Positions 54,301 through 60,790 of a stretch of DNA of 64,000 nucleotides are shown in pieces. The DNA comes from Candidatus Nanoarchaeia archaeon (GTDB lineage Archaea > Nanobdellota > Nanobdellia > Woesearchaeales > GW2011-AR9), in contig DATDTM010000047.1 of assembly GCA_035290865.1 (NCBI GenBank), forward strand, positions 14,127 through 78,126, written 5' to 3'. Both the position numbers and the translations under genes were made by a program. Below the pieces are notes generated by a model. The model saw only the letters and a program-made list of their open reading frames with translations. It was not told the DNA's origin and did no database searches. Every line of letters begins with the position of its first letter. The first letter of the stretch is position 1.

Positions 54301-54384
54301 TTGAGAATCATTTTCCAAAGCAAGGACTAAAGTTAAAAATAGTAAAAACGATCCAAAAATAATAATTCTTTTTTTCTCTATCAA
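48343..54384 (-). CDS. giant (2013 aa) cell-surface protein with Gly-rich, Ig-like, CARDB and FN3-like modules
   Basis: Signal peptide; GGNGGNG/GGKGGNGG glycine-rich block; three CARDB-like repeats (LTLTSSDIHYDQ...PANNFIVELLID, LTLFSNDIHLFP...GVNNFTLELFVD, LTLDASDIIQTP...DANNFVVRFTV); FN3-like PPLAPVLSSSPNNW...HYEYRIDAGSW. Confidence 0.7.
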   Translation of the reverse strand: MIEKKRIIIFGSFLLFLTLVLALENDSQTVNNTLGIPVESEELSTNLTPIENQLEENVTQSVNGSIQTPTGAIINLPLGLPINEAEPIYESTSISTALTLIIDKLTAIVGEIINIQAFLKDNNQTPIPDQKIDFYADEYLGSDITDIGGKAEINWDTFSRIPGFYTIIANYSGDEVISPNSVNLEIKINQKPIDKTPLKYKFKVKDENGELIGFSLYSKDELEDEPENVVYNLTIIPEDNPEIKIEFKNIRLNENEELGLSYPKIDSFEDLEFKDVYAVNPENLEFDSVRITSIAEGETLYKCKEWDFSNSQCLGTWQELMNLTIGEEYSFVLTKEDPGFAEGNKQKNISFAHLNFNAVQLSGKEIIYRNSADLSQYLKIETDQEYYHCLQNCIIRINITNTLFNLGETDFNISLDNSKRYSFKERNIKDTLDLTVNKSELLDYSLEDIPIGAEEFKFNVTLNLLGYTFVLDPTAISGCVEVEGNIINCNGTLSGNYIDTNNASIWVHDTIINGQGSPGLIRLNTTYGWINITNATLNGYGNQGSQGSDFEETCPSDGTHYGDNGGNGYEGKIELYIKNNLKIDNSVLNSYGGKGGNGGHAYQTGGSCVNTGTVIGGNGGIGGRGTIYLYGNKSSSIIIINSTSLNYYGGNGGNGGASDSNDAGWNCQGGNGVNAEKSHSIFTATEVKTKNITTFNGDKGNGGSSGGCNSCGGSCLGGGNEGSASISEHLWNVSNSISFDDVLYSGLSPAYNFHKFALTGNENRLGIFNNSDIEDKVYVFCSASEITIGNDTTLDTNLNFTYCPAYQNDNISYVDYDNFFITFGYPTSIDEDTGNDGTIDYQYAGTLDESNSPQEVDLNITAINDYLAICTPDQNNNCLVPLNFTTSSKGIIHLSDIIVDFSVSDNISPKIHNLIIIPNPANVSSNLTVKVNATDNINLTKVNATFSTQSITLTYNQISGWYEGVLIAPSSPGEYTLYVMASDWVNLTATNSTSGATESTGGLSIHSEDPDLTLTSSDIHYDQKVLYENQLLIFNATVYNKGDQPANNFIVELLIDDISDQSKTLSIANQSNSSTQFNWTTTYGNHSITIKTDASNIISEANELNNEASINISILDVTPPIIGEILHGSVEGTPSTIKVNIADNVNISVVTATISNTTLVLDYNSTSALYENTFTAPNAGIYELIITAKDINGLATTKKISLEIYSTIPDLTLFSNDIHLFPLPLTDGTLTNLSVIVHNDGGTGVNNFTLELFVDSILYQNKSLNILSDASNTAYFLWPAYYGQHLLTLRVDPLGNITESDENNNELNLSVLVKDKTTSQINEIIIVDTSYVNANLSLKVNVTDNLNVSTVNATVNNVLILLTYNSSSDLYEGFTTAPAAPGFYQINVTATDVSDLKDNRQQPITINPAEADLTLDASDIIQTPLNPAEPEVLGVNIIIRNEGGTDANNFVVRFTVNSNVQEQNLSVTKSSTNSTYFSWNSTYSNHTITINADYYNIIIESNESNNIYTKSIFVGDVIPPLAPVLSSSPNNWSTQNIHTISWNPVEDTNGINHYEYRIDAGSWNNIGLNTSFITLPQTEGVHTIYVRAVDNPGNLGHSGNVSLYIDTSNPGTPIIKELHSGDNWTQHNSPYYTWTNPGDIGSGVVSYVGELDGNLFSLGNSQSYHVNVTSGSHTFRIYAQDALQHNSTWSNPVNIYIDSDAPSMITITSPTHPNNNDWYNLSVPIFNFSATDIHSSIYGYYYVVNNNESTTPDIMNLWTMDSLINITGIGGTVSQNNQSQNAIGLTDGFWYLHSLAKDKVGNLGNTTHFVFKIDTLAPEIVNITPANNTIVGNNTPTIVINYYDSYSGVNTSSVILQLDGDVVAPFINTTTTTYTPAIPLTGGEHDLSIQIKDLAKESNFIIYNWTFKISANESEARTAIEQGAADSILIAYQTYTSQQLYVRYLNNTQKSGRFDKVIISGNQTWVFNFLTGSDAYTNIVGLHNNVLVIWENQTLTPDEISKQVETLINQTKW

Positions 54385-57300
54385 TTTTGAACTCCGTATC
54401 CTGAAATATTCAATTTAGCATTAGTAACATTAGCTGTTTTCGGTAATTTAATATAGACCACTTGGCTGCCTGCACCGGCATAAGTAAGATTTTTAATGTA
54501 TGAACCATCTGAAAGCGTAGTAAAGGTTAAACTTCCTGGACCGACAACCGGTATAATTACATTAGCGGTAGAACTTACATTATGGCTATCTGTAGCCTTT
54601 AAAGTAATTTTGTGAAAACCAGAAGAAAGATTGTTTAAAGTAAAAGCGTTCCCGGTCCCGATTACCCCATCACGGTCAGAAATCCAGACTAAAGAATTTC
54701 CGGAAAGATTACCATCTTCATAATCTTGAGCAGTGCCTTCAAAAGTAATGTTCCAGCCTAAAGAATAGACTGAGCCAGGAACTGGAGAAACGATGGTAAC
54801 ATTCGGCGGAGCAGAGATTACAGTTACATTTACAGAGACATTAGCACTTTGGTTATCATTATCTACTGCTGCTAAAATAATTTGATAAGATCCAACTGTA
54901 AAATTAGACCGATTAAATTCTGTCCCCGAACCTAAATTACCATTTAAAGAAGATTTCCAGGACAGAGAATTTCCGACTAAAGAACCGGTTTCAGGATCAG
55001 TTGCTATGCCCTTAAAAGTGAAGAGAACTCCATTAATTATCTGTTGATTATTTGTAGGAGAGATTATCGATACTATCGGTGGTTGAGGCTCTAAAACCAC
55101 AAATTGAGTCTGGTCGAGCCCAGTAAGGCCATAACTATCCATTACTGAAGCAGTAATCAAGTGTGCACCCTGAGATAAGGCTTTAATAAAAGATAAGCCA
55201 GTTCCAAGATACCCATCAAGACTGGAAGTCCAGTTTAATTTTGAAGATAAATCTCCATCATGCGGGTCGGTGGCAGTTCCATTAAAAGTGATGCTGTTTT
55301 CGGTATAATAAAAGGTGGCATTATTTTCTGGTAAAGTAATATTAATTATAGGAGTAGATTCTTCAATAATAATGCTTAGAACACTAACTGCACTTACCTG
55401 GCTAAAGTCGGTGGCATTTAAAGTGAGGTTATGTACCCCAACACTTAAAGAGTTAGTAAAAATGGTTCCGCCGCTACCTAAATAACCGTCGATACTTGAA
55501 GTCCAAATAAGAGCGTTACCCATTATGTTCCCATCTTCAGGGTCTAAAGCTTTACCATCCAAATAAACTGTTGCTCCTTCCGGGAAAGCCTGGCTGTTAG
55601 AGGGAGAATTTATGGTTATTACTGGTGGTTGTGAAGCCAGAACCAAAATAATTACCTGATCAACGTCTTTATTTCCATCAGAATCTTCCACAGTTAAATA
55701 AATAACCTGATCTCCCAAACTAAGGTTAGCATAGATTAAAGAGCCGCTACCAAGATAACCATCTTTACTGGAAGTCCATTCATACAAAGATTCATTTAAA
55801 GATTCATCTTTATAATCCGTGCCATACCCTGTAAGAATAGTTGGCAGATTGACATAAGCTGGTGCCCCGTTAGGTGGAGCGACAATCGAAGTAGTAGGCT
55901 TAGGATTAACCACATTTACTAACTCGTTGATTTGGTTGTTAAGTTCGTTTAGTTCACTGGTAACATCAGTGTAATCAACCTCAACACTAATATTACGTAT
56001 CCCAATAACGGAAAAGTTAGTTAAGATGCTGATTAAAGCAGTTTCGTTGCTGGCAAGATTAGTTATTTCCTTTTCCCCGATCAAATACTGGGCAGTATAA
56101 TCATTGGGAGAAGTATAACTCTCCATATATTTTAATTTAAAATTACTGGCATTAGCCGGCCCCTCATTTCTAACTGCAACTGTAATATTTAGAATTTCAT
56201 TAGCATCCGGGGTTAGGGAAGAAAAGCCTAAGGCAAGAGGAACTAAATCCGGTTTATTGGGGTTTTTTAAAGTGGCAAAGTAAACTGAATTATTTTCTGC
56301 GGCATAAGAATAAAGAGTGGCATTTTCTATCAATTCTGCAGTATGATTGCCTAATTCTCCTTCCACTTCCGGGTTAACCTTAGTTAATTCCACACCGCCA
56401 TAAACTGTATAATCCCACCAATTCCAGCCATTATTATAATACTGGAAAGAGTACAAATATTGCCAGGCTTTGGTTTCATAATAGCTTTGATCAAAGTTTT
56501 TGTAAAGGCCGGAGAGATTGTTAGAATCAATTAGCTTATTGTAAATTATATTTTCTCCCGGCTGCTTTTTATACCATTGAGCTAGGGCAATAGAAGCGTG
56601 GGCTCTTCGCAAGGCTTCATATTTTGGGTCAACATTAACTTTTATTTCAGCTTCAGCCGCAATCTCAGCTAAGCCCGCTTCAAGGTCAGCTTTGAATTGC
56701 GCTAATTCAGCCTGGTAGCCGCCGCCATTTACCCAGACTGCGTCCACTACAGAATTAACTTTTAGGGTGGAATTAGTGATAAATATTTTGCACCCGGTTC
56801 CATTTGCAGTTACGGAATCTGAACTGATCCAGACCCGGGCATAGAAACCAGGCCATTTGCTGGGATCGCCAACAACATTCTCTTCCCAGTTGTTAACCAA
56901 ACTTTCAACTAAATTCTGGCTTTGGCCAAAATGATCCATTTTGAGTTGGACGTCGGCATCAAACATAATCTGGCCTAATTCCGTGTGGGATAAGTTACCA
57001 TCAACTTTAGAAACATCACCCACTTTTCCTGCGAAACCCGGGCCAGGCTTAGTATCCATGGTCACCCACATTTTGTGATTAGGGACAATTAAGCTGGTTA
57101 AGAAAGCGTTAGTAGCTTGGACGGTAGCGTTAGTGATATTGATCAGAACATCAGTTGTGTTAGCTTCTTTTCCTTTCATCACGGCGACAAAACCTTCTTG
57201 AGGATCGCAGGTAGAGATATAGTTGAGATTAGCGGAAGTGAAGTTGATGCCGCCGGTTTTTTCTGCAACGTCTTCAGGGGAAGTGTCTATAAAATTTGTA

Positions 57301-60479: not shown

Positions 60480-60704
60480 TTATAAAGCCTCTTTACCACT
60501 TAAAGATATGCTTTTGATAATTGGATTCTCTCGCACAAAAGTAATCAACAAAACATCTCCGCACGGCGATTCAAAAACCATGGTCACCCACATTTTGTGA
60601 TTAGGGATAATTAAGCTGGTTAAGAAAGCGTTAGTGGCTTGGACGGTAGCGTTAGTGATATTGATCAGAACATCAGTTGTGTTAGCTTCTTTTCCTTTCA
60701 TCAC
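60480..60704 (-). pseudogene. truncated duplicate of an internal segment of the 1317-aa surface protein gene
   Basis: KGKEANTTDVLINITNATVQATNAFLTSLI(I/V)PNHKMWVTM is identical in both; the DNA at 60580-60790 matches 57059-57270 with about 3 mismatches. Confidence 0.5.
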
Positions 60705-60790
60705 GGCGACAAAACCTTCTTGAGGGTCGCAGGTAGAGATATAGTTGAGATTAGCGGAAGTGAAGTTGATGCCGCCGGGAGCGGCTGCTG
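60580..60790. repeat. ~210-bp near-identical dispersed direct repeat, copy 2 (gene fragment)
   Basis: As copy 1; divergence begins exactly at the repeat borders. Confidence 0.8.

Follow-up and report, generated by a model that had tools for sequence, protein, structure and literature searches.

Compact SpoIID-like domains in a tandem surface cassette of a Nanoarchaeia archaeon and their plausible action on foreign peptidoglycan

Archaea lack murein, which raises the question of what relatives of the bacterial SpoIID/LytB proteins would act on when an archaeon encodes them. Such a case is presented by contig DATDTM010000047.1 of Candidatus Nanoarchaeia archaeon, of which a stretch of 64,000 nucleotides (nt), called the window in the following, was analysed here. 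An initial annotation had described a tandemly duplicated cassette of a secreted SpoIID-like protein and a lipoprotein, and had read it as a system aimed at a bacterial or pseudomurein cell wall. Its five open reading frames (ORFs) are indeed present, all on the minus strand: gene A (54381–58334) for a secreted giant surface protein of 1317 amino acids (aa), gene B1 (58315–59028) for a lipoprotein of 237 aa, gene A' (59029–59796) for a secreted protein of 255 aa (253 aa if counted from the ATG) that comprises approximately the catalytic domain alone, gene B2 (59765–60472) for a lipoprotein of 235 aa, and a fragment of 74 aa (60480–60704). The order of A followed by B occurs twice, as borne out by the ORF list and by paralogy. 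Residues 27–270 of A and 22–248 of A' share 44% identity (E=3e-56), and B1 and B2 share 32% (E=8e-19); judged from these alignments, the duplication far exceeds chance. The best overall explanation, which we hold with moderate confidence, is a tandem surface operon whose A genes, most likely of bacterial origin, encode proteins that would cut foreign murein.

The assignment of the A and A' domains to the SpoIID-like fold and family is very probably correct. The motifs VLPNEWAPAISILWPTESLRAGAMATKLAPWY and DFTCDQMY, from which it had originally been proposed, were confirmed in A, and A' contains parallel motifs (VLDNEW...ESLRSGAMAVKLYGWY...DFTCDQMY). In the domain of A (approximately aa 43–248, 57591–58208, minus strand), which is delimited by its paralogy to A', by Pfam SpoIID and TIGR02669 and by family-invariant residues, we find VLPNEW with the catalytic Glu, DFTCDQMY, MTQWGTQY and YYYDN. 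Against the Pfam profile SpoIID (PF08486, gathering threshold 23 bits), A' scored above the threshold (28.4 bits, E=2.6e-6) and A just below it (21.8 bits, E=3e-4), yet the two are 44% identical over the whole domain. The only matches of the domain in a sequence search of the PDB were SpoIID (4rwr, E=4e-4; 5i1t; 5txu) and SleC (9h68). An AlphaFold2 model of A', built from a 60-sequence alignment, reached a mean predicted local distance difference test (pLDDT) value of 86 with a core above 90, and disorder was limited to the last 24 residues (232–255, pLDDT below 50). When this model was compared with the PDB by Foldseek, the matches at E≤0.001 were SleC (E=3.9e-8) and Clostridioides difficile SpoIID (E=1.9e-6), followed by Bacillus anthracis SpoIID (E=1.4e-3) and then by a match at E=0.6. 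The two comparisons by which the initial annotation had proposed to check the domain, a profile scan and a structural search, both return SpoIID for A'. Both A and A' carry N-terminal signal sequences, and the NCBI annotation already names A' a SpoIID/LytB domain-containing protein.

The residues that matter for catalysis in SpoIID have counterparts in the archaeal proteins. In the alignment with the PDB sequences, Glu94 of A' takes the position of the Glu in the N-terminal SpoIID motif VxxxEM (VVASEM in 4rwr, VLAGEM in 5i1t), and GLQMSQWGSQ of A' corresponds to the C-terminal SpoIID motif (GVGMSQYGAN and GVGMSQWGAE). The equivalent residue of C. difficile SpoIID, E101, is catalytic and needed for lytic-transglycosylase activity and for sporulation (PMC6221140). 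In a family alignment of 137 domains, Tyr86, Glu94 and Gln139 are invariant (137/137), and Trp95, Gly107, Ala108, Trp116 and Gln198 are conserved to 99%; a second comparison within the family gave a comparable set of invariant positions. The domain of A' (approximately aa 38–226, 59119–59685, minus strand) carries the catalytic Glu94 together with Gln139, Gln198 and Tyr219, and neither A nor A' has lost any of the family-invariant residues. Because these residues have been kept at a mutual identity of only 44%, the sequences argue for selection that maintains a working active site. A turn-beta-turn zinc site (H134, C140, H145, C146) has been reported only for C. difficile SpoIID (PMC6221140). 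A and A' each have one Cys in DFTCDQMY, and no His/Cys cluster is evident. A regular expression found the CDQ motif at this position in 75 of 151 family domains, and the Cys is less than 60% conserved in the alignment of 137 domains.

A and A' are considerably smaller than the SpoIID of Bacillus and Clostridioides (PDB 5i1t, 4rwr), with approximately 190 aa in comparison to approximately 300 aa, since about 40 residues stand in place of the central subdomain of about 125 aa that canonical SpoIID has. This trimming accounts for their low scores with the NCBIfam models and for SleC aligning over more of the domain. Both NCBIfam models match just the N- and C-terminal segments of the domains, and all scores lie far under the cut-offs: for TIGR02669 (SpoIID_LytB, cut-off 83.3 bits) A' reached 39.5 bits and A 24.9 bits (E=1.7e-5), for TIGR02870 (the sporulation SpoIID equivalog, cut-off 234.75 bits) 43.6 and 15.7 bits, respectively. 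On these sequence grounds A and A' are best classed as members of a compact SpoIID/LytB subfamily and not as orthologs of the sporulation protein. In contrast to SpoIID, they also stand in an archaeal host without a SpoIIP or SpoIIM partner and without a sporulation context, and A is fused to CARDB and immunoglobulin-like (Ig) repeats. SleC, the spore-cortex lytic transglycosylase of C. difficile (PDB 9h68), shares approximately 18–19% sequence identity with the A/A' domain. SleC, which attacks the spore cortex, has a pre-pro region at its N-terminus and a peptidoglycan-binding domain at its C-terminus; its PDB record carries the labels "pre-pro-form" and zymogen. Neither the pre-pro region nor the peptidoglycan-binding domain was found in A or A'.

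The actual family of the two proteins is formed by compact bacterial SpoIID/LytB proteins, which have the same invariant residues and, among the matches listed, are 31–43% identical to A'. A profile search with A and A' covering 1.8 billion proteins yielded 936 cluster representatives (E≤1e-3), of which 334 remain at E≤1e-10, with a common core of about 150 aa. Nearly all of these relatives carry PF08486. The great majority of the annotated ones come from bacteria (Chloroflexi, many Actinomycetes, Alicyclobacillaceae and other Firmicutes, Caldiserica), and the names in use are "SpoIID/LytB domain-containing protein" and "peptidoglycan hydrolase-like amidase". In the compact bacterial members, the domain is combined with CarboxypepD_reg, Inhibitor_I36, PG_binding or LysM modules. 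CarboxypepD_reg is the partner in the matches most identical to A' (42–43%, full coverage), whereas a Chloroflexi protein with 41% identity to A' (P0157) carries PG_binding_1 and PG_binding_3, and another relative (P0221) carries LysM. These fusions tie the compact subfamily to peptidoglycan. What sets the DPANN clade apart from the bacterial members is an additional helical insertion close to the N-terminus, which contains a conserved Cys, and the combination of the domain with CARDB and Ig repeats.

Archaeal members of the family are few and scattered, comprising this Nanoarchaeia lineage, one metagenome-assembled genome (MAG) each of Woesearchaeota and Bathyarchaeota, and a partial match in a Korarchaeote. 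As bacterial members are widespread and archaeal ones sparse and unevenly spread, the A domain was, judged from this distribution, most likely acquired from bacteria. The pattern also suggests several independent transfers of the compact family into archaea. The members or partial members outside DPANN are located at 2711–3691 of contig L009 (Bathyarchaeota, MAG JALHUX010000863) and in Candidatus Methanodesulfokora washburnensis (L035).

Bacterial contamination or a mis-binned contig as the source of the cassette was considered and rejected. On one side of the cassette, the window contains an archaeal RNase P RNA (25583–25947; 123 bits, cut-off 84) and the archaeal informational genes for Trm1, aIF5B, an RFC subunit, ribosomal protein S3Ae and Cbf5, and assemblies that reach further show the genes for Pelota and TrmB past its opposite end. 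The NCBI protein identical to A' likewise comes from a MAG of "Candidatus Nanoarchaeia archaeon". The G+C content is 34–40% across the whole window, and a G+C scan of the window detected no compositional island at the A/B locus. The archaeal nature of the genome, on which the earlier interpretation depended, is consequently well founded. An assembly artefact as the cause of the duplication was rejected as well, because six or more assemblies, obtained independently from different samples, show the identical gene order; gene A itself recurs unchanged in independent assemblies. Two of the housekeeping genes, for the replication factor C (RFC) subunit and the pseudouridine synthase Cbf5/TruB (20399–23437, minus strand, and 30836–33298, plus strand), are interrupted by inteins with LAGLIDADG homing-endonuclease domains.

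The second feature that bears on function is the architecture of A, which consists of a signal peptide, the SpoIID/SleC-like head, approximately 420 aa without assignment, a CARDB domain and five Big_7 repeats. CARDB (aa 694–802, 55929–56255, minus strand) was identified by PF07705 with 35.8 bits (cut-off 22.7). The five tandem Ig-like repeats of about 91 aa each (54537–55901, minus strand) were matched by Big_7 with 33.6 bits (cut-off 24.1) in four stretches; they appear in the DNA as direct repeats with a spacing of 273 nt (repeat family D2) and in the translation as a recurring WTSS.DGYLGSG motif. The CARDB/Ig character that had been attributed to A from its sequence is thus supported by scores above the cut-offs. 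The middle of A (aa ~270–690) gave no match in Pfam or in the PDB sequence search. A beta-sandwich of the pre-peptidase C-terminal type had been considered for its first part and is not claimed here, as the idea found no model support.

Taken together, the earlier interpretation stands in part: the SpoIID-like domain is located on a CARDB/Ig surface protein, and from the sequences and the model a function of A and A' directed at peptidoglycan is plausible and, in our estimation, somewhat favoured. In the mechanism we propose, A would carry an enzymatic head at its N-terminus, held out on a long CARDB/Ig stalk, and act on a bacterial wall in a contact-dependent manner, and A' would be released as a small stand-alone enzyme. 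Both would cut the backbone of N-acetylmuramic acid (MurNAc) and N-acetylglucosamine (GlcNAc) in bacterial peptidoglycan to 1,6-anhydro-MurNAc products. Because the archaeon itself has no murein, the substrate would have to be foreign, either the wall of a contacted bacterium or wall debris. A secreted NagZ-like enzyme of glycoside hydrolase family 3 (GH3), encoded 12 kb away, could then strip GlcNAc off these products so that it can be taken up. B1 and B2 would be anchored in the membrane after maturation by LspA and co-transcribed with the A genes, and their role as an accessory tether or chaperone at the membrane is a guess.

The GH3 protein of this scheme (41651–42793, minus strand), which the initial annotation had already pointed out as NagZ-like, was confirmed by Pfam (GH3, E=1.4e-36) as a single-domain putative beta-N-acetylglucosaminidase. 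All 11 of its PDB sequence matches at E≤1e-10 are GH3 enzymes, with LpqI and YbbD/NagZ, i.e. beta-N-acetylglucosaminidases of peptidoglycan recycling, in the lead; its score with the NCBIfam beta-N-acetylhexosaminidase model (79.9 bits) is under the cut-off. With a hydrophobic signal or anchor at its N-terminus, the protein is a candidate for trimming the products of a lytic transglycosylase. A weak MupG_N match at 35198–36196 (17.8 bits) was rejected as a further peptidoglycan-recycling gene, since the PDB search gave no support.

Several observations weigh against the proposed mechanism. The catalytic function of A and A' is inferred from sequence and model. With the central subdomain missing and the scores far under the NCBIfam cut-offs, their substrate specificity could differ from that of SpoIID. 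A Pfam scan detected no LysM, PG_binding, SH3 or similar wall-binding domain in either protein, and no amidase that might serve as a SpoIIP analogue was found among the window ORFs scanned. All cultured DPANN archaea have, to our knowledge, archaeal and not bacterial hosts. Next to the nearest homolog from another archaeon (Woesearchaeota, L001) there is no B-like gene, so that the A–B linkage is lineage-specific. The function of B is not supported by any match in the sequence or structure searches. Finally, SpoIID acts only on glycan strands that have been denuded of peptides by the amidase SpoIIP (PMC6221140).

This preference for peptide-free glycan would fit partly degraded wall debris, and the best surviving alternative is nutritional scavenging, in which the same activity digests free peptidoglycan debris in an aquifer and the GH3 enzyme feeds GlcNAc to an auxotroph. 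The secreted NagZ/LpqI-like GH3 on the same contig, the peptidase S51 gene adjoining lspA and the small size of A', which could diffuse, are in line with it. On the other hand, an adhesin-like stalk on a protein of 1317 aa within a giant CARDB/Ig block favours contact-dependent action over bulk digestion, and neither a muropeptide transporter nor an anhydro-MurNAc catabolic gene was seen in the window scans. We regard scavenging as the sole role of the enzymes as a minor possibility.

A glycan other than murein as the target, such as pseudomurein or a different polysaccharide from the envelope of an archaeal host, the organism's own surface glycans or a chitin-like polymer, appears improbable. 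The known DPANN hosts are archaea, and the specificity of a trimmed domain without central subdomain or wall-binding modules may have shifted. However, peptidoglycan-binding domains occur as fusion partners in bacterial proteins of this compact subfamily, and the sole structural relatives are murein lytic transglycosylases. Pseudomurein contains beta-1,3-linked N-acetyltalosaminuronic acid, and it lacks the MurNAc chemistry that the 1,6-anhydro product requires. Few of the published archaeal peptidoglycan hydrolases come from pseudomurein producers (PMC12352652). That the head is non-catalytic, be it a binding or adhesive module, a LytB-type "amidase enhancer" or, in A' and the remnant, the product of decaying functionless duplicates, is very improbable, since the intact Glu and family-invariant residues of A and A' point to long-term purifying selection, A' is identical across many samples and an enhancer would find no amidase partner among the scanned ORFs, even though SpoIID also has a stimulating effect on SpoIIP that requires no catalysis, the end of A' is a disordered leftover of the next domain, the third copy is clearly degraded and A lies under the Pfam cut-off.

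How does the action on foreign peptidoglycan favoured here relate to what is known of archaea? SpoIID and SpoIIP homologs were not detected in archaea by Makarova et al. (2015; PMC5898192). GH23 lytic murein transglycosylases in Woesearchaeota have been taken to indicate that bacteria are preyed upon (Vigneron et al. 2022, PMC9723730), and modular peptidoglycan hydrolases, for which Nanoarchaeota stand out most, were found in approximately 5% of archaeal genomes (Strock et al. 2025, PMC12352652); two such enzymes of one haloarchaeon kill a bacterium (PMC12352652). Like the enzymes of these two studies, A and A' are secreted, most likely of bacterial derivation and patchily distributed in murein-free archaea; the published enzymes are moreover concentrated in Nanoarchaeota and have been read as anti-bacterial or predatory tools. 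Unlike them, A and A' belong to another catalytic family, are in part fused to a giant adhesin and alternate with lipoprotein genes. The definition of a modular peptidoglycan hydrolase in the 2025 survey demands a wall-binding Pfam domain (PMC12352652); with a catalytic-type domain and no recognised wall-binding domain, A and A' fall outside it and would be missed by such a screen. SpoIID is not mentioned in the main texts of PMC12352652 and PMC9723730 or in 12 supplementary files of PMC12352652, and our literature search found no paper that combines DPANN and SpoIID. The theme of archaea attacking or scavenging bacterial walls is therefore known, whereas the catalytic family and the architecture differ. 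The domain is neither unprecedented as an idea nor unannotated, but A and A' add a catalytic family to the published archaeal peptidoglycan hydrolases. For the question of whether some DPANN archaea live on bacteria, the two proteins offer a concrete and easily expressed handle (mature A' has approximately 220 aa).

The lipoboxes that had been noted in B1 (LAGC) and B2 (IIGC) were confirmed, with Cys33 in each, and both signal peptides show a basic n-region and a hydrophobic h-region before the lipobox, for which the consensus [LVI][ASTVI][GAS]C is stated in PMC12462473. Searches of Pfam, NCBIfam and PDB sequences returned no match for B1 or B2, and among 5.8 billion clustered proteins only two B homologs were found, both in close relatives. 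In an AlphaFold2 model of B2, built from a shallow alignment (pLDDT 74), a beta-alpha-beta-beta-alpha-beta module occurs twice in tandem; Foldseek detected no PDB neighbour at E≤1e-3, and the only matches were generic tandem ferredoxin-like, ACT or RRM folds with a template modelling score of approximately 0.2. The suggestion that B might be a partner or inhibitor of A is not supported as far as known proteins are concerned, as neither Pfam, NCBIfam, the PDB profile search nor Foldseek gave a significant match. With respect to an inhibitor or immunity function, we found no homology of B1 or B2 to known inhibitors and no co-occurrence across lineages, and there is no obvious rationale for immunity in a murein-free cell.

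The lipoprotein signal peptidase predicted for this genome, a bacterial-type LspA (signal peptidase II; 28320–28784, plus strand), was clearly recognised (TIGR00077, 104 bits, cut-off 73.95; PF01252, E=6e-33), in agreement with the initial annotation. LspA is a candidate enzyme for maturing B1 and B2 and probably cleaves their lipobox signal peptides; of the lipidation enzymes, neither Lgt nor AliA was recognised among the window ORFs scanned. Lipoboxes are carried by 5 of the 64 window ORFs of at least 100 aa, which by sequence makes lipoproteins appear common in this genome. According to a study from 2025, no archaeal Lgt or Lsp homologs have been found, and the signal peptidase step is still missing in archaea (PMC12462473). 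The LspA encoded on this archaeal contig bears on that missing step of archaeal lipoprotein biogenesis, and the DPANN lineage may have imported it from bacteria. Three further lipobox ORFs without a Pfam match form a same-strand cluster (plus strand) at 15352–15978 (VVSC), 16064–17053 (LTSC) and 17961–18860 (LTAC). A distance of 2.4 kb separates the archaeal RNase P RNA from lspA, and the peptidase S51 gene (PepE/cyanophycinase-like dipeptidase; 28785–29465, plus strand) begins at the base right after lspA. Beside LspA and the Lnt-like gene described below, a bacterial GpsA-type NAD-dependent glycerol-3-phosphate dehydrogenase (43483–44439, minus strand; PF01210, PF07479, PF20618) deserves mention. 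Enzymes of the GpsA type produce the bacterial-type glycerol-3-phosphate lipid backbone.

The cassette would have diversified by old duplications, which gave rise to A/A' and B1/B2, by recent recombination and by a deletion that left a third A-type copy. The 74-aa ORF had been taken as an A fragment; its homology to A holds, but the source is an internal, non-SpoIID part of A, namely residues 385–427. The homology to A reaches 60778, and the 201 nt at 60578–60778 are 99% identical to 57056–57256 inside A (repeat family D1), as expected from a recent duplication or gene conversion. Followed upstream, the frame of the ORF stays open as far as the stop codon that ends the 594-aa gene, and in it neither a start codon nor a signal peptide was found upstream of the GTG at 60704. 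For this reason the ORF is best read as the 5'-truncated remnant of a third A-type paralog, A'' (60480–60778, minus strand). The 24-aa disordered tail of A' (IGDAVSAKIAKGQTWKFYV...) is homologous to the first residues after the head in A, so that A' originated as a truncated duplicate.

Related strains carry a longer equivalent of A'' (L008/P0002 with 400 aa, L011 and L010). In the near-identical strain L011 the A'' ORF runs further upstream. In L010, a relative with 78% DNA identity, the C-terminal sequence of A'' is kept at 54% amino-acid identity at the end of a longer gene and includes the tail that is missing from A; this longer A''-type gene is followed by a B-like gene and then by a new signal-peptide ORF, and the order A''–B–A' is kept. 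The 400-aa protein P0002 is a mosaic of an A' head, the A middle and an A'' tail with switch points at two DNA repeats. Its contig (L008; ENA ERZ5996431, NODE_101278, 1546 nt) has a coverage of just 1.5x and represents either a strain variant or a low-coverage chimera; a plain chimera of window sequence would not entirely account for it, as 273 nt encoding an Lnt-like C-terminus match nothing in the window. Judged from these sequences, the A/B locus appears recombinationally active. The Lnt match (TIGR00546, E=8e-11) is in an ORF end at 1–289 of L008, upstream of the mosaic gene.

A more far-reaching reading is tentative and in our view rather unlikely: the A–B cassette could be a contact-dependent device for breaching walls, in which B holds or activates the enzyme at the membrane and A opens the bacterial sacculus locally for a cytoplasmic bridge or for feeding, with recombination among the three A paralogs tracking changes of the target wall. 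If this were true, the locus would provide genomic evidence for a cross-domain episymbiosis between an archaeon and a bacterium, and for an archaeon running a bacterial-type lipoprotein pathway with LspA and possibly Lnt.

In the six-frame ORF list, the minus-strand block comprises, in order of transcription, a 594-aa gene, the 74-aa ORF, B2, A', B1, A and a 2013-aa gene. As neighbouring genes overlap or abut on one strand, co-transcription is suggested. The first gene (60880–62664) belongs to no significant Pfam family, and the N-terminal half of its product is, as read from the translation, hydrophobic and probably membrane-spanning. The 2013-aa gene (48343–54384) encodes a downstream CARDB/Ig surface protein (CARDB, 116.8 bits, three copies), and because its start overlaps the stop codon of A, it probably shares the operon with A. 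Besides the three CARDB domains and Ig repeats, its product contains a repetitive Gly/Asn-rich region with GGNGG motifs. Further downstream in the same block, a protein of 639 aa with a NosD-like right-handed beta-helix is encoded (46430–48349, minus strand), and the region from 45.5 to 62.7 kb appears to be one large surface-protein gene cluster. Elsewhere in the window, a Peptidase_C39-like (DUF3335) protein is encoded at 37832–38440 (plus strand), a domain type linked with the processing and export of bacteriocin-type peptides.

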